Assembly: GCA_041695105.1 (NCBI GenBank) | Contig: JBGFRN010000300.1 | Span: 1-34,762 of the forward strand | DNA length: 34,762 nucleotides | Source of the DNA: Bacillota bacterium | Lineage (GTDB): Bacteria; Bacillota; Sulfobacillia; JAMDAP01; JAJYMS01 | Reading direction: 5' to 3' | Shown here: positions 4,580-34,568 of the stretch, piece after piece | How positions within the stretch are numbered: position 1 is the stretch's first letter | Layout of the letters: each line of letters opens with the position of its first letter | Program-made: the position numbers and the translations under genes | The notes under the pieces: generated by a model | The model's database searches: none | What the model saw: only the letters and a program-made list of their open reading frames with translations | Told to the model about the DNA's origin: nothing

Positions 4580-4840
4580 GTGGTCGAAGTGACCCTGGAT
4601 CAGGCCCCTCTGGGGAGACCGGTCCTGCTGCGAGATTTCCTCGACCGCAGGATTGAGCATCAGGCGGTCCGGCTCGGCCTGGTCGAGGGCACCTTGGTCG
4701 TTCCCCTGGAAAGGATCCCCGGCGGGCCGACCGTTTTGGGCCTGGGCAACCGGGAGATCGCCGTCGGGCTGGAGTTGGCCCGGGCCGTCCTGGTCAGGCC
4801 GTTGGTCAGGCGACTGGTCTCCGGGGCCGAGCGCCCATGA
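4580..4840 (+). CDS. feoA: ferrous iron transport protein FeoA
   Basis: 86 aa. SH3-like FeoA pattern (LDQAPLGRPVLL...RLGLVEGTLVV...GGPTVLGLGNREIAVGLELARAVLV). Stop overlaps the feoB start (ATGA at 4837-4840). Confidence 0.7.
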   Translation: MVEVTLDQAPLGRPVLLRDFLDRRIEHQAVRLGLVEGTLVVPLERIPGGPTVLGLGNREIAVGLELARAVLVRPLVRRLVSGAERP

Positions 4841-6594
4841 GCACCATCGTTTTGGTTGGGAACCCAAATGTAGGCAAATCGGCCGTTTTCGGCGCTCTGA
4901 CCGGCACCTACGCCGAGATCTCAAACTTCCCCGGCACCACCGTTGAGGTCTTCGAGGGCCGGTTGGGGGATCACTGGGTGATCGATACCCCCGGGGTTTA
5001 CGGCCTGTCCGGTTTAAATGATGAAGAAAGAGTGGCCGGTTCCGTCTTGCCCGGGGCCGATCTGGTGGTCAATGTCGTTGATTCGGTCAACCTGGCCCGG
5101 GATCTGTTTTTGACCCTTCAACTCCTGGGAATGGGCCTGAGGCCGGTTCTCTTTCTAAATATGAGCGACGAGCTGTGGGCCCGGGGAATGGAGATCGACG
5201 CCCCCGGGCTTTCCGCCCTTCTTGGCCTGCCCGTGATCCAAGGGGCCGCCGTCAGGGGCCAGGGGATCAAAGAACTTACAGAGGGAATCACTTCAGCCCT
5301 TGAGGCCGGAGGAAGCGGTTCCCGCCCGCTGGGTCTAGCCATGCGGGGTCAAGCCCCGCAGGGTCTGACCCAGGCACCGTCCATGGCCCCGGATGATTAC
5401 CGCGCCCTGCGAACCGAAGCCGACCGTATCGCCGATCGGGTTCTGAAGGGCCGAGGTCGCTCGCGGCCAATGGCCTGGTGGCTGGGGCGGGCCAGCCTCA
5501 ATCCTTGGACCGGATTGCCGATCCTGGCTGCCGTCCTTTGGAGCGTTTACTACGTATTGGGCGACCTGGTCGCCCAGCGGCTGGTCGACTTCACCGAAAA
5601 GACCGTGATGGAGGGTCTCCTGGTGCCGTTGCTGGCAGCTGGGCTCTACCCGTTGACCGGTAACGACGGGCTTTTCCACGCCCTGCTGGCCGGCCGGTAC
5701 GGGCTGGCCACCATGGCCGTCTCATATATCTTCGGTTTGCTCCTGCCTCTGGTGGCGGCATTTAACCTGATCATGGGGCTGCTCGAGGATTCCGGATATC
5801 TGCCCCGGGTTGCGGTTTTGTCCGACCGCCTGTTGACCTGGGTGGGTCTGAATGGACGGGCCGTCATTCCCCTGATCCTGGGTCTGGGGTGCGTGACCAT
5901 GGCTACCATGACCACCAGGATCCTGGGAAACCGGCGGGAGAGGTTCATCGCGAATTTCTTGCTCGCCCTGACGGTGCCCTGCTCGGCCCAACTCGGGGTG
6001 ATGGCGGCCATGCTCGGTCCGCTTGGGGGAGAGTATGTCCTGGCCTGGGGGGCGGGTCTGATGGCTGTGTTTCTTGCCTCCGGGCGGATGCTGGAGAGGC
6101 TGCTGCCCGGGCGGCCGACTCCACTGTTAGCTGACCTGCCGCCGCTGAGGCTGCCCAAAACCGGCAACATCCTAAGCAAGGCCTACCGCCGCTCCAGGTG
6201 GTTCTTGATCGAGGCCGGGCCCTTGATGGCCCTGGCTTCGCTCGGAGTGGCCCTGGCCGATTACCTTGGCTGGCTGGCCCGTTTGGAACAAAATCTAGGC
6301 CCATTCTTTGAGGGCTGGCTCAGGCTTCCGGCCGGGGCGGCCCCGGCCTTCCTGGTTGGTATGCTCCGGCGCGATTTCGGGGCGGCCGGACTTTACGGGC
6401 TGCCCCTGGACCCGGGCCAGAAGCTAGTGGCCGTCTTTACCATGACCCTCTTCGTCCCCTGCTTGGCCTCGACCATGATGGTCGTCAAGGAACGAGGCCG
6501 TGTTGAGGGGGTTTTTCTTTGGGCGGCGGCAATGGTCACCGCGGTCGCTCTTGGCGGGATGGCCGCACGGTTAGTTCATTGGGCTGGCTTATGA
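4837..6594 (+). CDS. feoB: ferrous iron transporter FeoB (G-domain plus permease)
   Basis: N-terminal GTPase motifs (VGNPNVGKSAVF; DTPGVY) followed by a polytopic membrane domain. 585 aa. Confidence 0.9.
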   Translation: MSTIVLVGNPNVGKSAVFGALTGTYAEISNFPGTTVEVFEGRLGDHWVIDTPGVYGLSGLNDEERVAGSVLPGADLVVNVVDSVNLARDLFLTLQLLGMGLRPVLFLNMSDELWARGMEIDAPGLSALLGLPVIQGAAVRGQGIKELTEGITSALEAGGSGSRPLGLAMRGQAPQGLTQAPSMAPDDYRALRTEADRIADRVLKGRGRSRPMAWWLGRASLNPWTGLPILAAVLWSVYYVLGDLVAQRLVDFTEKTVMEGLLVPLLAAGLYPLTGNDGLFHALLAGRYGLATMAVSYIFGLLLPLVAAFNLIMGLLEDSGYLPRVAVLSDRLLTWVGLNGRAVIPLILGLGCVTMATMTTRILGNRRERFIANFLLALTVPCSAQLGVMAAMLGPLGGEYVLAWGAGLMAVFLASGRMLERLLPGRPTPLLADLPPLRLPKTGNILSKAYRRSRWFLIEAGPLMALASLGVALADYLGWLARLEQNLGPFFEGWLRLPAGAAPAFLVGMLRRDFGAAGLYGLPLDPGQKLVAVFTMTLFVPCLASTMMVVKERGRVEGVFLWAAAMVTAVALGGMAARLVHWAGL

Positions 6595-6624
6595 CGTGAT
6601 GGTATGGTTCGTGATGGTATGGTT
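6595..6624. repeat. perfect tandem duplication of the 15-nt unit CGTGATGGTATGGTT
   Basis: Read directly, starting one nt after the feoB stop. It lies about 120-150 nt upstream of the sigma-54-type promoter at 6743-6758. Confidence 0.8.
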
Positions 6625-6742
6625 ATAGTGAAGTTCGTATTAATGAAGTATCTCAAGCAACCGGTGCGGGATATCGCTCAAAAAGAATATAAGTTCACCC
6701 CCAAAAATCACAGGGAGCCGTGGCTGGCGCGGCTTTTTGTTG

Positions 6743-6758
6743 TGGCATGAATTTTGCT
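6743..6758 (+). promoter_or_regulatory. sigma-54 (RpoN) -24/-12 promoter candidate
   Basis: TGGCATGAATTTTGCT against the consensus TGGCACG-N4-TTGCW. GG (6744-6745) and GC (6756-6757) are separated by exactly 10 nt. It is intergenic, and a sigma-54-dependent activator is encoded at 16697-18070 on the same strand. Confidence 0.6.
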
Positions 6759-6798
6759 ATACTTAGAATAATTGGAGGCACAATTGGAGGCGGGCATT

Positions 6799-7329
6799 TT
6801 GAAAAAACCAGTTGCTATTTTTGCCGTTTTTATCTTGATCTTGGCTGGATACCTGGTTTACCGCAACATTATTTCAGGGCCTGTCTCGGCCGGCCCGCTG
6901 GGACCGGCACTGGATTTTCCCGGTGAGTGGGAGGGGTTGAAGCGCACGGCTCTGATTTCGGGTGACAGCGCCTTGCTTGAGTTCAAGAGGCTTCATGGAA
7001 AATCGATCCCCGTGGTGGGGGGTTACAAGGTTGATTACACCGGCCCTTCAGAAAAGGTCATCCTTTGGGTGGCCGTTGCCCAGGACCCGCGGGAGGCCGA
7101 AAAACTGGTTAAAGAAATGACCGATAAGATGATCGAGGCCGCCGGGACTCCGAGGGAGCACTTTTCCTCACCGGTTAAAGCCCCTTTGGGGAACCTGACG
7201 CTCTATTTCACCAGGGGTTCGGGCATGAACAACTACTATTACGCGCGCCAGAACCTGGTCTACTGGGTCGGTCTCAACTCTCAGCGGGAAGGCAACCTGA
7301 TGATGAAGATCGCCGAGGGAGGTCTGTGA
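6799..7329 (+). CDS. hypothetical membrane-anchored protein, first gene downstream of the sigma-54 promoter
   Basis: ORF 6772..7329. I prefer the TTG at 6799 (MKKPVAIFAVFILILAGYLVY), because GGAGG at 6786-6790 lies 8 nt upstream. The predicted sigma-54 transcript start (about 6768-6771) also leaves no leader for a 6772 start. No family recognised. Confidence 0.5.
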   Translation: MKKPVAIFAVFILILAGYLVYRNIISGPVSAGPLGPALDFPGEWEGLKRTALISGDSALLEFKRLHGKSIPVVGGYKVDYTGPSEKVILWVAVAQDPREAEKLVKEMTDKMIEAAGTPREHFSSPVKAPLGNLTLYFTRGSGMNNYYYARQNLVYWVGLNSQREGNLMMKIAEGGL

Positions 7330-7332
7330 TCG

Positions 7333-7674
7333 ATGAACCGCCGGTGGCTGTTTCTGGTCGCGATTCTGGCCGCCATAACCCTGTATAACACCATTGGATA
7401 CCACTATTTTGACGGGGTATGCTGGCTGGCCGGGCGCGGGGTAACCGGTGGGGTGTGGAGTCAGAACCACGTCAATTGGGCCTTGACCCTCTTCCATTCC
7501 GGGGTGGTTATTGCGGTAGTCCTGCTGGCGGTAGGGTTTTTTGCCAGCCTAGGCCTGACCCCGGGCCAGGACCAGGGGGCCGAAGGTGAGTGCCCCCGCT
7601 GCTCGCGTTCTGTCTCGGCCGGCTGGAAGCTTTGCCCGTATTGTGGTTTGGATGCCCTGGGGCTGAGCAGGTAG
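7333..7674 (+). CDS. two-TM membrane protein with C-terminal zinc-ribbon (CPRC-x11-CPYC)
   Basis: 113 aa, two hydrophobic helices, C-terminal CPRCSRSVSAGWKLCPYCG. Paralogous in motif to 11804..12274 and 18073..18249. Confidence 0.55.
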   Translation: MNRRWLFLVAILAAITLYNTIGYHYFDGVCWLAGRGVTGGVWSQNHVNWALTLFHSGVVIAVVLLAVGFFASLGLTPGQDQGAEGECPRCSRSVSAGWKLCPYCGLDALGLSR

Positions 7675-7759
7675 CAATTGAAGATTGGATGTTGGAAATA
7701 GTACAGTCAAGGCCCTTTTGACTAGTCGCCAAAACCGCGCCATGGCTACAATTCGCTAC

Positions 7760-7789
7760 TTGACCCTTTCAAAAAGCGGCTGTCATAAT
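7760..7789 (+). promoter_or_regulatory. possible sigma-70-type promoter (TTGACC-N18-CATAAT with a TG extended -10)
   Basis: TTGACC at 7760-7765, TGTCATAAT at 7781-7789, about 28 nt upstream of ATG 7817. By-eye match only. Confidence 0.3.
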
Positions 7790-7816
7790 TGTAGAAAGGA
7801 TTGAGAGGGGAAATCC

Positions 7817-8836
7817 ATGAAGATAAAAATTTTGGCTCTCCTGATGGCTATGATTCTTGGTCTCGGATCGGTGACGGCCGCCGCGCCGGCCAAAGAGACC
7901 CTGGTTTTTGAAGTCATGGATGTACAGATCATGCCGGAGTATGACCTGGACTATCCTCAGGTTCTGGTTATTCTCCAGGGGGCCCTGATTAACAAAGGGA
8001 CCGAGCCCTGGACCGGCGAGATCACCTTTCGGGCTCCGAAGAACGCTGACATTCGCTCGGCCTGTGAGCTGAGCGCTGATCCGCTCAAGAACCCGAACGC
8101 CGTCCACACCAATATGGTGACCCTGGGCAGGGCCAAGATCACCGAGAAGGGCGATTACAAGGAGATCACTTATACCACCGACAAGGTGATCGAGCCCGGC
8201 AAGGCCTATCCCTACCATATGGAATGGTACTACCCCGCCATCACCGGCGGTCCTGACAAGAAGGTCAACTTCAACCTTCCGGTTCCGTTCGGGGCCGACA
8301 AGGTCACCGTAGAAGTTGTCATTCCGGCCCGCGCCTCAAACTTCAAATCCAACCTCCAGGCCGCCCAATCGGGCGACGGAGGGAACGGCACCAAGATCTA
8401 CCGTTACGAGCTTCCGGCCATGAAGGCCGATCAGCCCCTGGCCCTGGATTTCTCGTATACCAAGGCCGATAATAACAAAACGGTGGCCTCTTCCAGCATG
8501 TCCCGGCCCAATGCCAGCTCCGACCTCAGCCTGGCCGGCAATCAGACTGTCCTTTGGGTGGCCCTGGGCATGGTCATCTTGCTCGGATTCTTCATTTTCT
8601 ATGGCGGCTCATCCAAAAAGGCCAGCGTGAGCTCCAAGCCCAATAAGGTTCAGGCTAAGGCTCAGAAACCGGCCCCGCCGGCCCCGCCGGTACCGGCCAA
8701 GGGCAAGGCCAACGCCGCCAACCTGGCCCGGGTCGAAGAAGAAAAAAAGAAGGCCCGCAAGCTGCTTCTGGATGGCAAGATCAGCGAGGAAACCTACCGG
8801 GAGATTGTTCGCGATTTGGATAACGGGAACCGGTAA
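7817..8836 (+). CDS. secreted beta-rich ectodomain protein with C-terminal TM anchor and cytoplasmic SHOCT-like tail (module copy 1)
   Basis: Signal peptide MKIKILALLMAMILGLGSVTAAAPA. About 200-aa ectodomain, Ser-rich linker, TM (VLWVALGMVILLGFFIFYGG), Lys/Pro/Ala-rich stretch, and tail LLLDGKISEETYREIVRDLD (SHOCT-like). Distant paralog of 12271..13317. Confidence 0.6.
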   Translation: MKIKILALLMAMILGLGSVTAAAPAKETLVFEVMDVQIMPEYDLDYPQVLVILQGALINKGTEPWTGEITFRAPKNADIRSACELSADPLKNPNAVHTNMVTLGRAKITEKGDYKEITYTTDKVIEPGKAYPYHMEWYYPAITGGPDKKVNFNLPVPFGADKVTVEVVIPARASNFKSNLQAAQSGDGGNGTKIYRYELPAMKADQPLALDFSYTKADNNKTVASSSMSRPNASSDLSLAGNQTVLWVALGMVILLGFFIFYGGSSKKASVSSKPNKVQAKAQKPAPPAPPVPAKGKANAANLARVEEEKKKARKLLLDGKISEETYREIVRDLDNGNR

Positions 8837-8867
8837 ATATCTGGTCCCGTTAAAGGGGGAAAATCCG

Positions 8868-9287
8868 GTGAAAAAACAGACCAAGGTCTTTGTCGGGGTC
8901 GGGATTATTCTGGCAGCCATCGGCTTTCTGATGTTTTCCGCCTTCTCCGGCAATCAGATGTATTTCTTCACCGTTGACGAAGTATTGGCCAAGTCCAAGA
9001 CCCAGAACCTGACGGGCAAGCCGATCCGGATTCAGGGTGCCATCGTTCAAGAGTCGGTTGAATTCGACATTCGGAAGCCACTACTTAAGTTTAGGATCAA
9101 GGGCGAATCGGGCGAGACCGTTTTGGTTGAGTACGCCGGGGTTAGGCCCGATAACATGACCGAGGCCACTTCGGCCATCGTCGAGGGCAAGCTAAACACT
9201 CAGGGCACACTGATTGCCAGCAAGGTGATGATGCAGTGTCCCACTAAGTACGAAGCCGAAGACGGGAAGAAGGGATCAAGCCAATGA
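8868..9287 (+). CDS. ccmE: heme chaperone CcmE, Cys-type (CxxxY) variant
   Basis: GTG 8868 preceded by AAAGGGGGA. N-terminal TM, OB-fold-like body (IRIQGAIV...), C-terminal QCPTKYEAE where canonical CcmE has HxxxY. Stop overlaps the ccmF start. The track start at 8772 overlaps the upstream gene and is rejected. Confidence 0.8.
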   Translation: MKKQTKVFVGVGIILAAIGFLMFSAFSGNQMYFFTVDEVLAKSKTQNLTGKPIRIQGAIVQESVEFDIRKPLLKFRIKGESGETVLVEYAGVRPDNMTEATSAIVEGKLNTQGTLIASKVMMQCPTKYEAEDGKKGSSQ

Positions 9288-11254
9288 ACCAAGTCGGTTC
9301 TATATTGATGACGATTGGGTTTTTCATCAACCTCTGGACTATAGCCGCCTACATCTATGGGCTTCGCAATCAGAACCAGCGATATCTCGACAGCGCCAGG
9401 GGCGGGGTCGGAGCCATGGCCCTGCTGGTGACCGTCTGCATCTCCATCCTCTGGGTTCTCTTCATGACCGATAATTTCTCAAACAATTATGTCGCCGGCC
9501 ATTCTTCCAGCGACCTATCCCCGGGCTACAAGTTCTCGGCGCTCTGGGCCGGCAACGAAGGCTCGCTGATGCTGTGGGTCTGGGTGCTTTTGGTTTACAA
9601 CTGGATAGTCGTTTACTTCCCCGACCCAAAAGGGGAGGAAATGATCCCCTACGTCGGAGCCGTGATGTCGGCCGTCGCCCTATTCTTTATGTTTATCCTT
9701 AACTTTGTGAGCCTGCCCTTCGCCGAGCTCAGCCCGGCCCCGGCTGAGGGGATGGGCCTCAACCCGCTGCTCCAAGATCCCGGAATGATTATTCACCCGC
9801 CAACCCTCTACCTGGGCTACGTCGGGTTCACTGTACCGTTCGCCTTCGCGATAACCGCGCTGCTCACCCGCAAGGTCGGCGATACCTGGATCAAGCTGAC
9901 CCGGCGCTGGACGCTGACGGCCTGGCTTTTCCTATCGGTCGGCATTATTTTCGGCGCTCAGTGGGCCTACACCGTCTTGGGTTGGGGCGGCTACTGGGCC
10001 TGGGATCCGGTCGAGAACGCCTCACTGCTGCCCTGGTTGACTGGAACCGCCTTCTTGCACTCGGTCATGATCCAGGAACGCCGCGGGATGCTCAAGGTCT
10101 GGAACGTGATGCTGATCATCATTACCTTCCTGCTGACTGTCTTTGGGACCTTCCTCACTCGCTCCGGGGTCATCGCCTCGGTTCACGCCTTCTCTGACAC
10201 CAAGCTTGGCGCCTGGTTCATGATCTTTATGGGGATGACCCTGGCGGCTTCACTGTATCTGGCCTTCGACCGGATGCACCTGCTCAAGGAGGAAAACCAG
10301 TTCGAGGCGATTATCTCGAAGGAATCAAGCTTCTTGCTCAACAACTTGCTCTTCGTCGGCTCGGCCTTCGCCGTTTTCTGGGGGACGATCTTCCCCCTGA
10401 TCTCCGAGGCCGTTCGCGGGGTCAAGGTGACTGTCGGACCGCCTTTTTATAACCAGGTCAACGTGCCGATCGGCCTGGCGCTGATCCTTCTGATGGGGCT
10501 CTGCCCGCTCATCCCCTGGCGCAAGGCCACAGCCCGGCATTTGATGACCAACTTCCTTTATCCGGCTATCGCCGGCGTCGCGTTCGCAGTGATCGCCTTC
10601 GCCCTCGGGATGCGCAGCGTTGTCGCCTTGATCGGTTTCACCATCTGTGTTTTTGTAATTGCAACCATCGTCCTTGAGTTCTACCGGGGGGTCAACGCCC
10701 GGCGAAAGATGACCGATGAGCCAGTCCTGGAGGCTTTCTGGCACCTGGTGATGCGTAACCGCCGGCGCTTCGGGGGCTATCTGATCCACATGTCTATGGT
10801 CCTGATGGTAATCGGGTTCACCGGCGAGGGCGTCTATAAGCAGGAAAAGATCTATACGGTTACTCCTGGACAAGTAATGGCTATCGGCGACTATAACCTG
10901 AAGTACAACGGCTTGGCCGGGGATGTTCGGGGCCGGACCGAGATCGTCTACGCCGACCTCGAGGTCTCACAATACGGACGGCCCCTTCCTGGAGCCCTCC
11001 GTGCCAGCAAGGAGTTCCACCCGAACTCCGAACAGCCGACTACCGTGGTCGGCGTCAAGGGCGGCCTGAAAGAGGACCTTTTTGTTATCCTTAACGGCTG
11101 GGAAAAGGACATGACCGCCAACTTCAAGATCTACGTCAACCCACTGGTGGCTTGGATCTGGCTGGGCGAGTACCTGATGGTCGCCGCCACGATCTTTGCC
11201 ATCTGGCCGGAACGCCGCCGTCTCGGCTACGGAGTCTCCCTGACCGGCGACTGA
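9284..11254 (+). CDS. ccmF: cytochrome c heme lyase subunit CcmF
   Basis: 656 aa, polytopic. WWD-family motif WAYTVLGWGGYWAWDPVENASLLPWL. Confidence 0.9.
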   Translation: MNQVGSILMTIGFFINLWTIAAYIYGLRNQNQRYLDSARGGVGAMALLVTVCISILWVLFMTDNFSNNYVAGHSSSDLSPGYKFSALWAGNEGSLMLWVWVLLVYNWIVVYFPDPKGEEMIPYVGAVMSAVALFFMFILNFVSLPFAELSPAPAEGMGLNPLLQDPGMIIHPPTLYLGYVGFTVPFAFAITALLTRKVGDTWIKLTRRWTLTAWLFLSVGIIFGAQWAYTVLGWGGYWAWDPVENASLLPWLTGTAFLHSVMIQERRGMLKVWNVMLIIITFLLTVFGTFLTRSGVIASVHAFSDTKLGAWFMIFMGMTLAASLYLAFDRMHLLKEENQFEAIISKESSFLLNNLLFVGSAFAVFWGTIFPLISEAVRGVKVTVGPPFYNQVNVPIGLALILLMGLCPLIPWRKATARHLMTNFLYPAIAGVAFAVIAFALGMRSVVALIGFTICVFVIATIVLEFYRGVNARRKMTDEPVLEAFWHLVMRNRRRFGGYLIHMSMVLMVIGFTGEGVYKQEKIYTVTPGQVMAIGDYNLKYNGLAGDVRGRTEIVYADLEVSQYGRPLPGALRASKEFHPNSEQPTTVVGVKGGLKEDLFVILNGWEKDMTANFKIYVNPLVAWIWLGEYLMVAATIFAIWPERRRLGYGVSLTGD

Positions 11255-11284
11255 CGGTCTGGTCGAAAGAGAGGGCTATCTAAA

Positions 11285-11794
11285 ATGAGATTTACCGGAA
11301 GAATGCTACCGTTGCTTTTAATGGCGGCCGCCCTTTTGGCGTGGGCCCCGGCCGTGGCTTCGGCCCAGGTGATGAAGCCTCCGGTCGAGATCAACCGCCC
11401 GACCCGGGCGGTGGAGCAGCAGTTAATCTGCCAGTGCGGCTGCACTATGGTCGTAGACGTCTGTGACTGCGGCACGGCCGAGAACACCCGCAAGGACATC
11501 CTGGCCAAGATGAATTCGGGCATGTCGAATCAGCAGATTCTGGCCGCTTTTATGGCTCAGTACGGTGAAAAGGTCCTGGCCTATCCTGAGAAGAAGGGCT
11601 TTAACTGGGCGGCCTGGATTACCCCCTTCGCTGCCATTATCGCTGGTGCCACCCTTCTATATTTCATCTTGCGTAATTGGGTCCGATCCTCCCGGCGCTC
11701 CGAGGCCGCCGCCCCACAGGCGGGCCGCCTGAGCGAGGAGGAGGGCAAAATCTATGACAGCAAGCTTCAGGACGTGTTAAAGAAGCACTTCTAG
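11285..11794 (+). CDS. ccmH: cytochrome c biogenesis protein CcmH/NrfF family, atypical Cys pattern
   Basis: Signal peptide and a C-terminal TM. Family-like segment SNQQILAAFMAQYGEKVLAYPEKKGFNWAAWITPF. The redox motif region reads LICQCGCTMVVDVCDC instead of LRCxxC. Confidence 0.75.
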   Translation: MRFTGRMLPLLLMAAALLAWAPAVASAQVMKPPVEINRPTRAVEQQLICQCGCTMVVDVCDCGTAENTRKDILAKMNSGMSNQQILAAFMAQYGEKVLAYPEKKGFNWAAWITPFAAIIAGATLLYFILRNWVRSSRRSEAAAPQAGRLSEEEGKIYDSKLQDVLKKHF

Positions 11795-11803
11795 CGAGAG
11801 GTC

Positions 11804-12274
11804 GTGACCGTAGTGACCATAGCCGTTGTCATAATCGGCGTCTTTACCGGTTTGGCCGCCATCCTTCTGATTGGTCTCCCGCTGCTTCGGGCCCAAAGCG
11901 ATGAGATGCGGGAAGTCGAACTTGATGAGGTCGAGCTTGAAGAGATTGAGCGTGAGAAGGTTTTCGCCGCTCTCTCCGACATTGAGTACGACTATCGGAT
12001 GAATAAACTTTCTGAGGAGGACTACCAGGAACTAAAGGCCCGCCTGGCCAAGAAGGCGGTTGAGTTCATCAAAGAAGAAGAAGAGGCCGAGGCCACGACC
12101 GGGCCCAATCTTGAGGATGAGATCGAGGCCGAGGTGGCCGCCGAACTCGGCAAGCCCGATCCCGAACCTTCCGGCCCGGCCGCCAAAGCCGGCGGATACT
12201 GTCTTCACTGCGGGGCCAAACTGGCCAATAGCGATCAGCGTTTCTGTCAATCATGCGGGGGTAAGCTGGCATGA
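11804..12274 (+). CDS. N-terminally TM-anchored acidic coiled-coil protein with C-terminal zinc-ribbon
   Basis: GTG start after GAGAGG. TM (VVIIGVFTGLAAILLIGLPLL), E/D-rich helix, CLHCGAKLANSDQRFCQSCGGK. Stop overlaps the next start (ATGA at 12271). Confidence 0.55.
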   Translation: MTVVTIAVVIIGVFTGLAAILLIGLPLLRAQSDEMREVELDEVELEEIEREKVFAALSDIEYDYRMNKLSEEDYQELKARLAKKAVEFIKEEEEAEATTGPNLEDEIEAEVAAELGKPDPEPSGPAAKAGGYCLHCGAKLANSDQRFCQSCGGKLA

Positions 12275-13317
12275 TTAATAAATGGCTGGCCGGGCTGGTA
12301 GCCTTGTCGCTGGCCCTGTCTGTAGCCGGCAGCGCCCTGGCCGCCCAGGCGGCGACCGGGGTATCATCCGAATTTACCCACCTGTTGTTCGGAGTCAAAG
12401 ACGGGCAGCTCAAGGTCTTCCATCTGGTGAAGCTCAAAAACCAAGGGGCGTCTAGTTCCGGTCCAATCGAACTATCGCTTCCCAAGGGGTACCAAAACCC
12501 GGCCTTTTCGGGCGATGCCGGTGGGGCGATGGCCAAAGAGGTTCAGCTTGGATCGGAGGGCCTAAAGGATCCCCGGGGTCTGGAGCCGGGCGCGGCCAGG
12601 GACTATGTGCTGACCTACGACCTGCCGATGCCGCCGGATGGTCAGAGCCTGCGGGTCAACGTCAACTACCCGACCCAGATGATCCTGATTCTGGCTGACC
12701 AGGCCACGGTTCAGATGGTTCCCCTGCAAAACCGGGACTTCAGCTCTCAGGGTTCCGTCCAATACGGGCAAAAAACCTTTGAACAGTTTGCCCGGAACGA
12801 TGTTGCTCCCGGTACTACCCTGACCATGACCCTCGGACCGGCCACACCCGGGGGCGCACAGCCCGGCGGGGCCGGACAACCCGGCGGCGGGATGGCCCAC
12901 GAGCCTCCACCCGGAACCGTGACCAAAGGCACGATTGCCCTGCTCAACCAGGCCTTCCACGGCGGGGCTTCAAATATGATGATGTGGCAGCGCTTTACCG
13001 GCACCACCGGGCACGGTGGACTGGTCGGGAGCATCATCATTCTGGCCGGGCTGACCGTCCTGATCTTCGGCCTGGGCCGGACTTTCTATGTTCGCTGGCA
13101 GCTCAAGCAGGGGATCAACCCCGAGACCGGTGAACGGCCCGAGGAGACGTTCGAAAAGCTCCTCAAGGAAAAAAGCATTTATATTAAGAAAATCGCCGAC
13201 CTTGACCGTAAGGCCGAGGCCGGAGAGATCACCTCCGAAGAGCATCAGGAGCGCCGCTCGGCCTATAAGCGCCGTCTGGTCAAGGTTCTGGCCCGGCTGA
13301 AGGAGGTGGAGAATTGA
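12271..13317 (+). CDS. secreted beta-rich ectodomain protein with C-terminal TM anchor and SHOCT-like tail (module copy 2)
   Basis: Signal peptide (LVALSLALSVAGSALAAQA), ectodomain, Gly/Pro-rich linker, TM (LVGSIIILAGLTVLIFGLG), tail EAGEITSEEHQERRSAYKRRL. By eye it aligns with 7817..8836: LLFGVKDGQLKVFHLVKLKNQG vs LVFEVMDVQ..VLVILQGALINKG, and LEPGAARDYVLTYDLP vs IEPGKAYPYHMEWYYP. Its stop overlaps the ccmA start. Confidence 0.6.
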   Translation: MINKWLAGLVALSLALSVAGSALAAQAATGVSSEFTHLLFGVKDGQLKVFHLVKLKNQGASSSGPIELSLPKGYQNPAFSGDAGGAMAKEVQLGSEGLKDPRGLEPGAARDYVLTYDLPMPPDGQSLRVNVNYPTQMILILADQATVQMVPLQNRDFSSQGSVQYGQKTFEQFARNDVAPGTTLTMTLGPATPGGAQPGGAGQPGGGMAHEPPPGTVTKGTIALLNQAFHGGASNMMMWQRFTGTTGHGGLVGSIIILAGLTVLIFGLGRTFYVRWQLKQGINPETGERPEETFEKLLKEKSIYIKKIADLDRKAEAGEITSEEHQERRSAYKRRLVKVLARLKEVEN

Positions 13318-14015
13318 CTGTCCTTTTGGCCCGCGGCCTCGAAAAGAGAATCGGAACCAAATACGTCCTGTCGGGCTTCGATCTGGAGCTGCGGCAGGGG
13401 CGGTTCCTGACCATCTTCGGACCGAACGGGGCTGGCAAGTCCACCTTCCTCAGGGTGGCCGCCGGCCTCATTTCACCTTCGGCCGGCGAGCTGCAACTGA
13501 TGGGCCAAAGGCCAGCCGAGGGTGAGGGCGGCTATCGCAAGGGCTTGGGTTTTCTATCACACGGATCGTTTTTGTACGATAACCTGACGGCGGCAGAGAA
13601 CCTGGCTTTTTACGCCAAGATCTATGGAGTAAGAGATTCGGGGGCTATCATTCCCCGGCTGCTCAACGAGATCGGTCTAAGCCTTTTCGCCAACGATACC
13701 GTCCGGGGGTTTTCCCGGGGGATGATCCAGCGCTTGGCTATTGCCCGGGCGATTATCCACGACCCGGAGATCCTCTTTCTCGACGAGCCCTATACCGGCC
13801 TTGATCAGAGGGCGACCGCCATTTTGGACGGGGTACTCAGGCGTTTCAAACGCGCTGGAAAAACAGTGGTCATGGTCTCGCATAACTTTGCCGAGGGGCT
13901 GGCCCCGGCCGACGAGGTGGCGGTAATCGCCCGCGGGCGGGTGGTCGTTCACCGGGAAAAGGGGGAGCTCACCCCCGAGACCTGGAGCCGGGAATACCAC
14001 CGGGCGGTTGAGTAG
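13314..14015 (+). CDS. ccmA: heme exporter ABC ATPase CcmA
   Basis: Walker A GPNGAGKST, signature-like FSRGMIQRLAIARA, Walker B ILFLDEP. Followed by ccmB and ccmC. Confidence 0.85.
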   Translation: MTVLLARGLEKRIGTKYVLSGFDLELRQGRFLTIFGPNGAGKSTFLRVAAGLISPSAGELQLMGQRPAEGEGGYRKGLGFLSHGSFLYDNLTAAENLAFYAKIYGVRDSGAIIPRLLNEIGLSLFANDTVRGFSRGMIQRLAIARAIIHDPEILFLDEPYTGLDQRATAILDGVLRRFKRAGKTVVMVSHNFAEGLAPADEVAVIARGRVVVHREKGELTPETWSREYHRAVE

Positions 14016-14028
14016 CGGGGGTGTGTGA

Positions 14029-14721
14029 TTGGGCGACTACCTGCGCGTAGTGCTGGCCATAGCCGGAAAAGACCTGCGGGCCGAGAGACGGAGCAAGGAA
14101 ATGCTCTCGGCGATGCTGATTTTTTCCTTGCTGGTGGCGGTGATTTTTTCATTTGCCTTTAACATCGAATCGGGCATTTTGCGTGAAACCTTCCCAGGCG
14201 TGGTCTGGGTGGCCTTCTTCTTCGCCGGAACCCTTGGGCTGAACCGGTCTTTCGTTGGTGAGCGCATGAACGCCGCCATTCACGGCCTGATGCTGGCTCC
14301 GGTCGAGCGGAGCGCCATCTATTTCGGCAAGGTTCTGAGCAACCTGGCCATCATGTTTTTGACTCAGTTGGTTGGTTTGCCAATTTTTTTGATCTTCTTT
14401 GACGCCACGGTCGGCGGCTCATGGGCCTACCTGCTGCTCTCGCTGGTGGCATCCACCTTTGGATTCGTCGCCGTCGGCACCTTTTTGGCCGCTTTGTCGG
14501 CCAACACCAGGACCAGCGAGATCCTCCTTCCGATCATCCTCTTTCCGGTGGTGGTCCCAGTCGTCCTTGGCGCGGTTCAGACTACGGCCGGGGCGATGGC
14601 CGACCCGAACACCCTGGCCGACCCGACGGGGTACCTTAACTGGTTCAAAGTATTGCTGGTCTACGATCTTGTTTTTCTGATCGTTCCGTTCCTGCTCTTT
14701 GATTACGTCCTGGAGGTGTGA
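14029..14721 (+). CDS. ccmB: heme exporter membrane protein CcmB
   Basis: 230 aa, six hydrophobic segments. VVWVAFFFAGTLGLNRSFVGER resembles the conserved CcmB loop. Positioned between ccmA and ccmC. Confidence 0.85.
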   Translation: MGDYLRVVLAIAGKDLRAERRSKEMLSAMLIFSLLVAVIFSFAFNIESGILRETFPGVVWVAFFFAGTLGLNRSFVGERMNAAIHGLMLAPVERSAIYFGKVLSNLAIMFLTQLVGLPIFLIFFDATVGGSWAYLLLSLVASTFGFVAVGTFLAALSANTRTSEILLPIILFPVVVPVVLGAVQTTAGAMADPNTLADPTGYLNWFKVLLVYDLVFLIVPFLLFDYVLEV

Positions 14722-14722
14722 A

Positions 14723-15400
14723 ATGACCCCCGAACGCCACAGGGTATTGGGCTATACCACTTTCATCATGGTGACCCTGGGCCTGATCTGGGCCTTCCTG
14801 GTCTCGCCGACCGAAAAGGTGATGGGTGACGTCCAGCGGATCTTTTACTTTCACGTTGCCTCGGCCTGGAATGCCTTTCTGGCCTTCTTCGTCGTCTTCA
14901 TCGCCAGCATCCTTTACCTCAAAACGCGCGACAGGCGCTGGGATCTGTTGGGATACTGTTCGGCCGAGGTCGGGGTGCTCTTCACCACTATCGTCCTGCT
15001 CACCGGGCCGATCTGGGCCAAACCGATTTGGCTAACCTGGTGGACCTGGGATCCCCGGCTGACGACGACCCTGGTCCTTTGGTTCATCTACCTGGCTTAC
15101 CTGGTTATCCGCTCCACGGCCGAGGGCAGCGAGGCTCAGGCCCGCCTGGCGGCTATCTTCGGAATTATCGGCTTTTTGGATGTCCCCCTCGTCTTCGTTT
15201 CGGCCCGCTGGTGGCGCTCGATTCACCCGGTGCTGATCGACAAGGACAAGATGAACATGGAGCCGCCGATGGTGGTGGCCATGATCCTGGCCGTCTTGTC
15301 GTTCACCCTGCTCTATGCCTATTTAACCTCGGCCAGGATGCGCGTCGAGCGCTTGGCCCAGGAGGCCCAGGAACTTAAAGAAGCCCTCAGGTCGCGCTGA
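14723..15400 (+). CDS. ccmC: heme exporter/heme-handling protein CcmC
   Basis: WWD motif PIWLTWWTWDPRLTTTL. ATG 14723 lies 2 nt after the ccmB stop and follows GGAGG. The track start at 14699 overlaps ccmB. Confidence 0.9.
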   Translation: MTPERHRVLGYTTFIMVTLGLIWAFLVSPTEKVMGDVQRIFYFHVASAWNAFLAFFVVFIASILYLKTRDRRWDLLGYCSAEVGVLFTTIVLLTGPIWAKPIWLTWWTWDPRLTTTLVLWFIYLAYLVIRSTAEGSEAQARLAAIFGIIGFLDVPLVFVSARWWRSIHPVLIDKDKMNMEPPMVVAMILAVLSFTLLYAYLTSARMRVERLAQEAQELKEALRSR

Positions 15401-15437
15401 AGCGTGGCCGCAAGCATACAAGGGAGGCCGCATTGTT

Positions 15438-15581
15438 ATGAAAGAAGAGCTGATCTATCTCTTTGCCGGCTACATGGTCATCTGGACGGCCATCTTCGTC
15501 TACACCCTGACTTTGGGGGGGCGCCAGAAGCGGCTTGAGGCCGAAATCGACCTGCTTAAGCAGGCGGCCGGGCGCCGCTAG
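15438..15581 (+). CDS. ccmD: small CcmD-like membrane protein (47 aa; below the ORF-track cutoff)
   Basis: My translation: MKEELIYLFAGYMVIWTAIFVYTLTLGGRQKRLEAEIDLLKQAAGRR. One TM followed by a basic/coiled tail, AGGGAGG 8 nt upstream, positioned directly after ccmC as in ccm operons. Confidence 0.6.
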   Translation: MKEELIYLFAGYMVIWTAIFVYTLTLGGRQKRLEAEIDLLKQAAGRR

Positions 15582-15605
15582 GCCACCCGAAACCCAGAGG
15601 GCGGC

Positions 15606-16700
15606 TTGACGGTTAAAGAGCGCCAGCGAGACTTTTTGATCATTGCCCTGGCCTTCGCCCTGATTACGGCCGGGCATATCGTTCATGGCTACTACCGGGT
15701 TGAGTACCGAACCCTTTACCGCCTCCTGTACTTCATCCCGGTTATTTTTGCCGCCTTTCGCTTTGGGCTGAAGGGCGGCATCGTCGCCCCGCTGGTCGCC
15801 TCGGTTCTTTACTTGCCTGACATTGCCTTGTTCGTTGGGCGCATATCGGCCGATCAGATCCCGGACATCCTCGACGTCCTGTTATTTAACGTTATCGGCT
15901 GGATCACCGGGGTCATGGTTCACCTGGAATCACGCCGCAACCTGAGCTACCGGGCCCTGGTCCGGGAACTGGCCTTCAGGGCTTACGAAAAGCGCCAGCT
16001 TGAGGAACAGATCCATCGCTCCGAGCGCCTGGCCAGCCTGGGCCAACTGGTGGCCGGCATGGCCCATGAGATTAGAAACCCGCTCGGGATCGCCAACACC
16101 ACGGTCCAGGTGATGAAAAAGGAGTACCGGGACGACCAAAACCTGCAAGAGTACGCCACTGTCATCCTTGATGAACTCGACCGGATGAACCGGGTGCTGG
16201 GGCAGTTCCTGAACTTTGCGCGGCCGGCCGCGGGAGAAAGTAAGCCGGTCAAGATCCCGGAACTGATCGAAAGCGTTCGCTCCCTGACCTCCCGCTATCT
16301 GAAAGAACACGCCGTGACCTGCTTCGTCGACGTGCCCGGGGGGCTGCCGGAGATCACCGCCGACGCCGGGGCCCTGAAGCAGGCCCTGGTCAACCTGATC
16401 TTCAACAGCGTTGACGCCATGCCCTCGGGAGGGCGGCTGATGCTTTCGGCCGGCCTCAGCCAGAACCACTTGAAAATCACCGTCTCTGACACCGGCCTTG
16501 GCATTCGCCCCGAGGACCGGCCCAAGATTTTCGACCCTTTTTTTTCGACCAAGGAGACTGGATTTGGCCTGGGGCTGGCGGTTGTTCATCGAATCATTGA
16601 TGCCCACGGCGGCTACATCGAGGTTGATAGCGAGCCCGGAAGCGGTGCCTCGGTCAGCTTGAATCTTCCCCTGAAGGTTGGAGAGGAGGGCGGAGCTTGA
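15606..16700 (+). CDS. intramembrane-sensing histidine kinase (HisKA + HATPase_c)
   Basis: 3-4 N-terminal TMs with no periplasmic domain. H-box GMAHEIRNPL, N-box LVNLIFNSVDAM, G-boxes DTGLGI and GFGLGLAVV. The TTG start is uncertain. Confidence 0.85.
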   Translation: MTVKERQRDFLIIALAFALITAGHIVHGYYRVEYRTLYRLLYFIPVIFAAFRFGLKGGIVAPLVASVLYLPDIALFVGRISADQIPDILDVLLFNVIGWITGVMVHLESRRNLSYRALVRELAFRAYEKRQLEEQIHRSERLASLGQLVAGMAHEIRNPLGIANTTVQVMKKEYRDDQNLQEYATVILDELDRMNRVLGQFLNFARPAAGESKPVKIPELIESVRSLTSRYLKEHAVTCFVDVPGGLPEITADAGALKQALVNLIFNSVDAMPSGGRLMLSAGLSQNHLKITVSDTGLGIRPEDRPKIFDPFFSTKETGFGLGLAVVHRIIDAHGGYIEVDSEPGSGASVSLNLPLKVGEEGGA

Positions 16701-18070
16701 AGACGATCCTGATCGTCGACGACGAGAAGAATATGCGCTGGGCGCTGGAAAAGGGCCTGCGGCAGGCCGGCTACCGAACCCTCTCCGCGCCGGATGGACC
16801 TGAAGGACTCGATCTGGCCGCCTCCGAGGCACCCGATCTGGTTTTGCTCGACCTTAAGATGCCGAAGATGGACGGTCTCGAGGCCCTCAGGCTGATCAAG
16901 GAGCAGCGGCCCGAGCTTCCGATCATCATTATCACCGCCCATGGATCGGTGGCCACTGCCATCGAGGCGATCAAGGCCGGGGCCTACGACTATATCTCCA
17001 AGCCCTTTGATTTAGAAGAGATCCAGATTGTCATCAAAAAGGCCCTCGAGGTCAGGGCCCTGACCGAAGAAGTGGCTAAACTTCGCTCAGAGGTAGAAAG
17101 AAAATACAGCTTCCAAAACATCATTGGTAAGAGCTCCAAAATGCAGGCCGTCTTCGACCTGGTCGAGCGGGTGGCCGGCACCTCGGCCTCGGTCCTGATA
17201 TATGGGGAGTCGGGCACCGGCAAGGAACTGGTGGCCAAGGCCATCCACTACCTGAGCCCGCGCCGCCACCGGCCCTATGTCCAGGTCAACTGCTCGGCCC
17301 TGCCCGAGACACTGCTCGAATCGGAGCTTTTCGGGCACGAGAAGGGGGCCTTCACCGGGGCGATCGCCCGCCGCCAGGGCCGTTTCGAACTGGCTGACAC
17401 CGGTACCCTTTTCCTTGACGAGATCGGGGAGCTGAGCCCCCCGGTCCAGGTCAAGCTGCTCCGCGTCCTGCAGGATAGAACCTTTGAGCGGGTTGGGGGC
17501 ATGGAATCGATTAAGGTCGACGTCCGGATCATTGCCGCCACTAACCGTGACTTGACCCAGGCGATGGTCGAGGGCAAGTTTCGCGAGGATCTCTACTATC
17601 GCCTAAATGTGGTGCCGATCCAGCTTCCGCCGCTGCGCGAGCGGGCCGAGGACATTCCCCTGCTGGTTGAGCATTTCCTGAAAAAGTTCTCTGCCGGCCC
17701 CGACCCGGCCGGGGCGAGGGTCAAGACTCTGGCCCCCGAGGCCGCCCGCCGCCTGGCTGAGTACCGCTGGCCCGGCAACGTTCGTGAACTGGAGAACGCC
17801 ATTGAACGGGCGGTAATTATCTCCCGGGGAGACCGGATCACTGTCGAGGATCTGCCCCGCGAGCTGCAGCAAACGTCTGCTCATCCGCACCGGCGCGCGG
17901 CTTTTAAGCTGCCCGAGGGCGGGGTCAACCTTGAGGATGTCGAGCGCGATCTGATTCGCCAGGCCCTGGATCGTACGGGGGGGAACCAGACCCAAGCCGC
18001 CCGGCTGCTCGGGATCACCCGGCATACCCTGCTTTACCGTTTGGACAAGTACGGCCTGAAGGGGAACTGA
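16697..18070 (+). CDS. sigma-54-dependent response regulator (NtrC/AtoC family: REC + AAA+ + Fis-type HTH)
   Basis: REC (LIVDDE...DLVLLDLKMPKMDG), Walker A GESGTGKE, GAFTGA sigma-54 contact loop (EKGAFTGA), C-terminal HTH GNQTQAARLLGITRHTLLYRL. Start overlaps the kinase stop. Confidence 0.9.
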   Translation: MKTILIVDDEKNMRWALEKGLRQAGYRTLSAPDGPEGLDLAASEAPDLVLLDLKMPKMDGLEALRLIKEQRPELPIIIITAHGSVATAIEAIKAGAYDYISKPFDLEEIQIVIKKALEVRALTEEVAKLRSEVERKYSFQNIIGKSSKMQAVFDLVERVAGTSASVLIYGESGTGKELVAKAIHYLSPRRHRPYVQVNCSALPETLLESELFGHEKGAFTGAIARRQGRFELADTGTLFLDEIGELSPPVQVKLLRVLQDRTFERVGGMESIKVDVRIIAATNRDLTQAMVEGKFREDLYYRLNVVPIQLPPLRERAEDIPLLVEHFLKKFSAGPDPAGARVKTLAPEAARRLAEYRWPGNVRELENAIERAVIISRGDRITVEDLPRELQQTSAHPHRRAAFKLPEGGVNLEDVERDLIRQALDRTGGNQTQAARLLGITRHTLLYRLDKYGLKGN

Positions 18071-18072
18071 AT

Positions 18073-18249
18073 ATGGTTTTCTTCTTCCTTCTACTCGCCG
18101 GCCTGGTTATTTATGAGATTTATTCACGTGAGCCCGGTTACGAGGAGATCCTCAAACAGGCGAAATACTGTCCGAGTTGCGGGCGGCCGGTTGAGCCCGA
18201 TTTCACTCTGTGTCCCTATTGTGGAGGAAAACTTCCCAGGGGACGTTAG
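18073..18249 (+). CDS. small TM + zinc-ribbon protein (58 aa; below the ORF-track cutoff)
   Basis: My translation: MVFFFLLLAGLVIYEIYSREPGYEEILKQAKYCPSCGRPVEPDFTLCPYCGGKLPRGR. Starts 2 nt after the regulator stop. Same CPxC-x11-CPYCG ribbon as 7333..7674. Confidence 0.45.
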   Translation: MVFFFLLLAGLVIYEIYSREPGYEEILKQAKYCPSCGRPVEPDFTLCPYCGGKLPRGR

Positions 18250-18256
18250 ATATAAA

Positions 18257-18286
18257 TTGACTCGAAAGAACTAGGAAGTATATACT
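18257..18286 (+). promoter_or_regulatory. possible sigma-70-type promoter (TTGACT-N18-TATACT) in an AT-rich intergenic region
   Basis: TTGACT at 18257-18262 and TATACT at 18281-18286. This would give a leader of about 170 nt before GTG 18462. By-eye match only. Confidence 0.3.
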
Positions 18287-34201: not shown

Positions 34202-34391
34202 CAGGCAATGTACCCCCGGCATGGGCAGTAGCTATAGGGTGAAAGACCCGAACGGAGGGTGACAGCCCCAACCGTTAGCCAAGGGCAAGGGTGTCCACCG
34301 TGAGGTGGAATCTGAAGGAAGCTGGAGGCAAACTCCCGACCCGAGGTACACGAACCGCATACGAGGCTGTTGCATCCGCGGCGAGGCGTGC

Positions 34392-34568
34392 CTCCGTCCG
34401 TTCTTGCAAGCAACCCCCATCAATTTACATGCAAAAATGGACAGAGCGGAGGGCCAGACCCCACTCAGGGGCTAAATTGGGCAGAAATTAACCTAAAATC
34501 AATGGGCGGAAACCGCCACCGTCCGTTTTTGCATGCCAAGCGGCCCTCCATCGTGCAAAAATGGACAG
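34392..34568 (+). repeat. two copies of a long hairpin built from the motif TGCAA(A/G)AA(T/C)GGAC in alternating orientation
   Basis: Hairpin A pairs CTCCGTCCGTTCTTGCA (34392-34408) with TGCAAAAATGGACAGAGCGGAG (34430-34451). Hairpin B pairs CCGTCCGTTTTTGCATG (34519-34535) with CGTGCAAAAATGGACAG (34552-34568). Confidence 0.6.

Follow-up and report, generated by a model that had tools for sequence, protein, structure and literature searches.

Two-component systems in which a histidine kinase governs an activator of the NtrC family that works on sigma-54 promoters are exemplified by NtrB/NtrC with the glnAp2 promoter, by AtoS/AtoC, and by ZraS/ZraR. Here we describe a locus of this general type at which a conserved sigma-54 promoter (positions 6743 to 6758) precedes genes for cytochrome c maturation (ccm). 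It is located on a 34,762-nucleotide contig, the whole of which is referred to as the window, from a genome of 2.93 Mb (344 contigs, 60% G+C). The family to which it belongs is uncultured and probably of the Bacillota type, and very large multihaem cytochromes are encoded in it as well. In its regulatory parts, the locus is reminiscent of the NtrB/NtrC type: a kinase is paired with an activator that combines a receiver domain (REC), an AAA+ domain with a GAFTGA motif, and an HTH_8 domain; the -24/-12 promoter is close to TGGCAC-N5-TTGCW; a 16-bp dyad of the form TG...CA is present ~100 nt upstream of the predicted start; and the activator gene is linked to its presumed target. Unlike the nitrogen, acetoacetate, and zinc genes served by NtrB/NtrC, AtoS/AtoC, and ZraS/ZraR, respectively, the targets here are ccm accessory genes. 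Further differences from the NtrB/NtrC type are found in the kinase, whose sensor part is exclusively membrane-embedded, in the position of the activator gene, which is placed in the tail of the regulated gene string, 10 kb downstream, and in the dyad, of which one is visible here as opposed to several at glnAp2. The regulatory mechanism as such is a textbook one; it is the target genes that are unusual.

Little is understood of the way in which bacteria control the apparatus for haem attachment to c-type cytochromes, a matter of importance for organisms that practise extracellular electron transfer. In classical System I ccm operons (ccmABCDEFGH), such as those of E. coli and Rhodobacter, transcription is driven by sigma-70-type promoters. 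The operon in the window has in common with them the genes ccmA to ccmF plus ccmH and a conserved sigma-70-type promoter (7760 to 7789); it departs from them through an upstream sigma-54 unit, a kinase/activator pair in the operon tail, an additional gene that we refer to as gene X, three zinc-ribbon proteins, and the absence of ccmG from within the operon. Control of respiratory cytochrome functions by sigma-54 and a dedicated activator is a trait that the locus shares with Geobacter and Desulfovibrio. Cytochrome genes of Geobacter sulfurreducens are under sigma-54 control (RpoN regulon, PMC2725144), and the CbcBA/BccR system of the same organism is sigma-54-dependent (bioRxiv 10.1101/2021.04.15.440034), as is the Ohc octahaem complex of Desulfovibrio vulgaris, which is controlled by DVU3142 (PMC4641369). 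The Geobacter consensus TTGGCACGGTTTTTGCT nearly equals the site found in the window. However, the Geobacter and Desulfovibrio regulons comprise cytochrome structural genes, whereas the promoter studied here heads a maturation operon in a lineage that is probably Gram-positive (Bacillota-type). A term search of the two sigma-54 regulon papers on these comparison systems retrieved no ccm genes, and our literature searches revealed no account of a ccm operon controlled by sigma-54, a result that, given the incomplete coverage, is absence of evidence only.

Our analysis points, with a probability that we put at roughly 0.7, to a circuit in which the sigma-54 promoter, the kinase/activator pair, and an upstream dyad act together with a basal internal promoter, and in which transcripts probably read through into the ccm genes. 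It would be a well-defined arrangement, with one promoter, one candidate 16-bp enhancer, one kinase/activator pair, and apparently a single target locus. Its value lies in the nature of the target genes and in a corrected annotation of both the enhancer and the operon structure.

A conserved sigma-54 promoter ahead of gene X

The sequence TGGCATGAATTTTGCT occupies positions 6743 to 6758 (plus strand) of the intergenic region between feoB and the start codon at 6799, from which it is separated by 41 nt; its GG (6744-6745) and GC (6756-6757) stand at the canonical 10-nt separation, just as the preliminary description of this DNA had claimed. With the reading TGGCAT-N5-TTGCT, it deviates from the consensus TGGCAC-N5-TTGCW by a single exchange of C to T, a common one, and the degenerate pattern TGGCAY-N5-TTGCW has only 14 exact matches on both strands of the 2.93-Mb genome. 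The preliminary description had proposed that the site be scored with a sigma-54 matrix and that the genome be searched for rpoN; both were done. With an approximate sigma-54 weight matrix, the site reaches 21.7 out of a possible 22.2 and ranks first among ~5.9 million genome positions; the second-best score within the window is 12.7, and the scan yielded no other strong sigma-54 site on the 34.8-kb contig. An rpoN gene is present (G000:C98:1417-2781; TIGR02395, 427 bits against a cut-off of 277), and so are activator genes, of which 13 are full and 2 partial. Of the 15 strong sigma-54 sites, about 12 are intergenic and face a gene, and 10 of the 13 best are found on the contigs that carry activator genes, a fraction of 8.5% of the genome (P ~4e-9). 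Since rpoN, activators, gene-facing intergenic sites, and a clustering of these sites on activator contigs all occur together, the sigma-54 motif class is evidently in use in this organism.

Close relatives of the window are scarce, and five lineages besides it were compared. They are represented by the metagenome contig L017 (gene X protein 74% identical to that of the window; promoter TGGCACGTTGTTTGCT), the metagenome contigs L018-L023 (63%; TGGCACGGATCTTGCT), the sole other genus of the family (G001; 39%; TGGCACGCGCCTTGCT), the contig L025, which is near G001 (38%; likewise TGGCACGCGCCTTGCT), and the metagenome contig L042 (activator 70% identical; TGGCATGGGAGTTGCA). All of them possess perfect -24/-12 elements upstream of the gene X homologue, while the spacers between these elements vary. 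In a six-way alignment of the intergenic regions, the two elements form the sole invariant block, and they are also the only segment that could be aligned in pairwise local comparisons. This invariance is maintained although the gene X proteins of the most distant lineages have diverged to 38-39% identity.

More distant relatives at the order or class level (G003, G033, and G022) provide a useful contrast. In G003 and G033, gene X is located within or behind the ccm genes, but no sigma-54 site is found there, and the sigma-54-like matches in these three genomes fall exclusively inside coding regions and occur at chance frequency. The promoter therefore seems to be restricted to the family and its uncultured kin. 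A search of genome contigs with gene X confirmed no relative, and a search of metagenome contigs with a three-sequence alignment led to one distant locus (L024). The combined results support the view that the site at 6743 to 6758 behaves as a genuine and conserved sigma-54 promoter, with a predicted transcription start at ~6769.

A sigma-54 look-alike that conceals a sigma-70 promoter of the extended -10 type was considered as well. The string TGCTATACT is readable in the window, so that TGcTATACT (6755 to 6763) would overlap the -12 element, a sigma-70 scan reports a weak site at 6742 to 6769, and L018 carries TGCTACAAT at the same place. However, the -10-like hexamer has not been preserved in L017, G001, L025, and L042, whereas no variation is seen in GG-N10-GC and its flanks across the six lineages; moreover, a good -35 element is lacking. 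We regard this explanation as hardly credible.

The sigma-54 promoter is also likely to be insulated from the upstream gene feoB (4837 to 6594, plus strand; Pfam FeoB_N, Gate, and FeoB_C), which likewise neighbours the locus in L017, L018, L025, and G001. A terminator scan combined with fold-energy calculation detected a terminator-like element at 6710 to 6741 (plus strand), directly 5' of the -24 element; it consists of a hairpin (6722 to 6734) followed by the T-run TTTTGTTGTG and has a fold energy of -19.2 kcal/mol. An equivalent hairpin with a U-run exists in L017 (z -2.9), and a weaker counterpart in L018. The feoB transcript probably ends at this hairpin, and the genes further downstream would consequently need a promoter of their own.

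Activator, kinase, and candidate enhancer

The gene at 16697 to 18070 (plus strand) encodes an NtrC-type sigma-54 activator with a REC domain (PF00072, 1e-34), an AAA+ domain (PF00158, 9e-75) that includes the sequence GHEKGAFTGA, and an HTH_8 domain (PF02954, 4e-18). Its start is overlapped by 4 nt by the gene for a histidine kinase (15606 to 16700, plus strand; Pfam HisKA and HATPase_c), and this pair is kept at all orthologous loci. The N-terminus of the kinase (~110 aa) traverses the membrane several times and has no sizeable external domain; the conservation of the membrane region among the kinase orthologues points to a membrane or envelope cue. A role as haem ligands was contemplated for two histidine residues in the first membrane helix of the kinase and was dropped, as these residues are not conserved in an orthologue with 55% identity.

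Orthologues of the activator form a sharp group with 88, 84, 77, 75, 74, and 70% identity, and the next homologues (at most 64% identity) are generic NtrC/AtoC-like proteins from Desulfotomaculum, Desulfosporosinus, and other Firmicutes. The genetic context could be read for the orthologues with 88, 84, 77, and 70% identity, those with 74-75% being located on short contigs; in each case, the activator gene is positioned behind ccmABCD and the kinase gene and is followed by a small zinc-ribbon gene, an HMGL-like gene, and icd. The recognition helix RHTLLYR of the helix-turn-helix (HTH) domain is near-identical across the orthologues, and the entire HTH is identical in L017. No orthologue was detected in G003 and G033, where the best matches (45-49% identity) are confined to the AAA+ part. 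The promoter and the activator thus show the same pattern of presence and absence, and this is the main argument for assigning the activator at 16697 to 18070 to the promoter at 6743, of which it is the probable regulator.

The evidence on which this assignment rests can also be set against the suggestion that another of the ~15 activators of the genome works the 6743 promoter. At the other strong sites with an activator on the same contig, the two are 0.5-7 kb apart, whereas the present pair, with 10.4 kb between its members, is the farthest in the genome; in addition, L017 has retained the promoter with a poor dyad (see below). On the other hand, the site at 6743 to 6758 is the only strong one on its 34.8-kb contig, no other sigma-54 site lies beside the activator gene, and the orthologues of the activator co-occur with the promoter and are jointly absent with it. 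Control by a different activator is, in our view, improbable.

Where such an activator might bind was assessed by taking every 16-mer of the 195-nt stretch that precedes the promoter and comparing it with the upstream regions of the other five lineages, using 200 shuffles as the reference. The best-conserved 16-mer is TGCGGGATATCGCTCA at 6665 to 6680, with a score of 62 as compared to 52.4 +/- 1.0 (maximum 56) in the shuffles. It is an imperfect 16-bp dyad, palindromic in character, and as a candidate upstream activating sequence it would be centred ~72 nt upstream of the GG of the -24 element, or at about -97 with respect to the predicted start. Counterparts in the same register are TGTGCGATATGACGCA in L018, TGCGCGATATGGCGCA in L025, TGTGCGATATGGCGCA in G001, and TGTACGAAATGCCGCA in L042 (13 of 16 positions), so that four of the five related lineages have kept the dyad. 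In the genome of the window, the pattern TGNGNGATATNNCNCA has no second occurrence. Among 37 loci, it was found exclusively at those that bear the promoter in L018-L023, L025, L028, and G001, with a single copy at each. A search for further members of a possible regulon returned, for the genome of the window, a sole near-match to the dyad that lies inside an aminopeptidase gene, and for G001, one further match that has no sigma-54 site nearby.

In the preliminary description, the enhancer role had been given to a different element, a perfect 2 x 15-nt tandem repeat of CGTGATGGTATGGTT at 6595 to 6624, directly after the feoB stop codon (6592-6594). The repeat itself is present as claimed, and its position 120-150 nt upstream of the promoter is a typical enhancer distance; furthermore, a repeated sequence could bind a multimer. 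However, the repeat is absent from all five related lineages and not among the conserved 16-mers, and yet these lineages keep the promoter and a near-identical activator HTH. It is a direct repeat and not a dyad, and it sits at the junction where a csoR-like gene (PF02583) separates feoB from the promoter in L017 and L018; L042 has such a gene farther upstream. From protein identities, the tree ((window, L017), L018) is obtained, and the distribution of the csoR-like gene on this tree implies its loss in the lineage of the window. A check for remnants detected a weak C-terminal likeness (VLMKYLK versus VLMKFVK, E 0.1), and this stretch may be a faint vestige of the csoR-like gene. The tandem repeat is thus very improbable as a binding site for the activator; it probably represents a lineage-specific deletion or duplication scar, and the dyad at 6665 to 6680 appears to be the better candidate for the enhancer.

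Several points weigh against the proposed circuit, in particular with respect to the dyad. The distance between the centre of the dyad and the GG is not constant: it amounts to 72 nt in the window, 70 nt in L018, 83 nt in L025, 40 nt in G001, and 126 nt in L042. The differences between these values correspond to approximately whole helical turns, an observation of suggestive value only. In L042, the match is also of poor symmetry. L017, the closest relative, contains only two degenerate copies (10-11 of 16 positions) and a different palindrome, CCACGGTAATCGTGG; nonetheless, its promoter has been kept, and the HTH of its activator is identical. It is because of this exception that our confidence in the dyad is held at a level only somewhat above even. 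More generally, the sigma-54 matrix is an approximate one based on the published consensus, the relatives represent only ~5 independent lineages that are all metagenome-derived, and any of the ~14 other activators of the genome would be able to act at the promoter.

Gene string and internal sigma-70-type promoter

Fifteen same-strand genes extend from 6799 to 18249; the preliminary description had counted 16. Its estimate that the gaps between them measure at most ~140 nt was close, the largest one being 142 nt (7675 to 7816), and its account of the last three genes, which code for a histidine kinase, a GAFTGA-containing NtrC-type activator, and a small zinc-ribbon protein, was confirmed.

The first gene of the sigma-54 unit, gene X (6799 to 7329, plus strand), specifies a membrane-anchored protein of 176 aa that belongs to no Pfam family. 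Its proposed TTG start codon at 6799 is in line with the MKK beginning of the homologous proteins. The ribosome-binding region is duplicated (6770 to 6791, plus strand; AATTGGAGGC twice, 12 nt apart), and this 12-nt tandem duplication also allows an in-frame TTG at 6784; the homologues favour 6799. Gene X accompanies ccm genes in several orders, at differing positions in the operon. Structure prediction (pLDDT 80) yields one membrane helix and an alpha/beta domain with weak likeness (TM ~0.4) to extracytoplasmic domains of the PknH-sensor, TiME, and PsbP types. The protein is devoid of cysteine, and its invariant residues are His66, Tyr80, Tyr136, Tyr146, Trp90, and Trp156. Presumably, it is an accessory factor of cytochrome maturation. 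The second gene (7333 to 7674, plus strand) encodes a membrane protein with weak Pfam zinc-ribbon matches, and a homologue is found at the same place in L025, L017, L018, and L042. In L017 and L018, the sigma-54 unit has two extra genes, one for a protein of 158-166 aa and the other for a second CcdA-like thiol transporter. Close copies of both are missing from the genome of the window, the lineage of which appears to have lost them in comparison with L017 and L018.

An internal promoter of the sigma-70/SigA type, TTGACC-18-(TG)CATAAT, is located at 7760 to 7789 (plus strand; 10 of 12 positions) and thus precedes a gene for a 339-aa protein and the ccm core. Both hexamers are invariant in the window, L017, L018, L025, and G001 (five sequences, ~4 independent lineages), while the two groups of sequences differ at 11 of the 18 spacer positions; L042 has TTGCTT-17-TATAAT at the same place. 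This conservation argues that the ccm core, the kinase, and the activator have a housekeeping-type promoter of their own, and dependence on sigma-54 alone is predicted for just gene X and the zinc-ribbon protein encoded at 7333 to 7674. The preliminary description had placed the ccm genes as a whole under sigma-54 and had itself named this internal promoter as a possible objection. Its view stands insofar as the sigma-54 promoter heads the gene string; it does not hold for the ccm core, which is not dependent on sigma-54.

The ccm core (7817 to 15581, plus strand) comprises, in this order, the gene for the 339-aa protein, ccmE, ccmF, ccmH, a zinc-ribbon gene, a gene for a 348-aa protein, ccmA, ccmB, ccmC, and ccmD. 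The Pfam families CcmE, CcmF_C, Cytochrom_C_asm, CcmH, ABC_tran, and CcmB were recognized, and a ccmD-like open reading frame of 47 aa is present at 15438 to 15581. The System I genes ccmA, B, C, D, E, F, and H are accordingly all part of the operon. Its last gene (18073 to 18249, plus strand), which encodes a 58-aa zinc-ribbon membrane protein, has been kept after the activator gene in G001, L038, and L041.

It is conceivable that the sigma-54 promoter drives just gene X and the zinc-ribbon gene, and that ccm, kinase, and activator genes are transcribed solely from 7760 to 7789, in which case ccm would not be under sigma-54 control and there would be no autoregulation. In favour of this view, the internal promoter matches the sigma-54 site in its degree of conservation, the 142-nt gap has been retained in all lineages, and a modest hairpin is possible within it. 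However, this hairpin lacks a T-run, and its folding is no better than that of shuffled sequences (z -0.94), and terminator-like sites along the operon are found at the frequency expected by chance (19 as compared to 15.9 +/- 4.2 in shuffles). With no convincing terminator in the gap and terminators at chance level in the operon, read-through is plausible, and feedback would better explain why every lineage has the activator gene in this string. We consider such a strict separation of the two units possible and yet rather unlikely, and read-through from the sigma-54 promoter into ccm, and hence autoregulation, remains the plausible alternative that we prefer.

Proposed circuit and further observations

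We suggest that the locus operates as follows. RNA polymerase containing sigma-54 would sit at 6743 to 6758, unable by itself to open the DNA. In response to a cue that may originate in the membrane or the envelope, the kinase (15606 to 16700) would phosphorylate the activator (16697 to 18070), which would then bind to the dyad TGCGGGATATCGCTCA at about -97 and remodel the sigma-54 holoenzyme at the expense of ATP, with transcription predicted to start near 6769. The promoter at 7760 to 7789 would supply a basal level of the ccm core, the kinase, and the activator, and induced transcripts that read through would raise the levels of all three, thereby establishing positive feedback. In such a two-promoter design, with a basal sigma-70-type and an inducible sigma-54 promoter, the activator can be present before induction despite the location of its gene at the operon end.

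A more specific, and speculative, extension of this circuit would be that the kinase/activator pair constitutes a dedicated feedback system for cytochrome c maturation in a Gram-positive-type lineage with an abundance of multihaem cytochromes. The kinase would sense how heavily the Ccm machinery is loaded, or whether it fails, with haem, apocytochrome, or the thiol-redox state in the membrane as the signal, and the pair would induce gene X, the zinc-ribbon protein, the second CcdA in the relatives, and the operon through read-through. Our literature searches brought up no regulator that exerts such quality control on System I, and we judge this extension, on balance, to be unlikely.

Some further features of the locus and the genome should be mentioned. 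An HMGL-like gene follows the operon in all relatives; in the window, a sigma-70-like promoter (TTGACT-18-TATACT; 18257 to 18286) is found in the 212-nt gap that precedes it. The probable placement of the organism in the Bacillota relies on the named proteins that are closest to the activator; a search of the genome did not detect Spo0A above the cut-off. The second-best sigma-54 site of the genome, TGGCATGGTTTTTGCT (C98:2863-2878, minus strand), stands ahead of rpoN itself (C98:1405-2829, minus strand), ~35 nt before the first in-frame start codon of that gene; autoregulation of sigma-54 via this site is possible. For nearly every activator gene of the genome, a strong sigma-54 site is found no more than 0.5-7 kb away (contigs C86, C11, C103, C318, C195, C163, C31, C134, C113, C126, C251, C314, and C146), a proximity that would permit a near-complete map of activators and their targets to be drawn for this organism. 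Five copies of a 27-nt tandem repeat containing TGGCCCGATTTATGCT are present near the end of contig C258 (positions 125 to 233), and within the window, positions 34294 to 34465 match the domains D1-D4 of a group II intron (Rfam RF02001, 57 bits).

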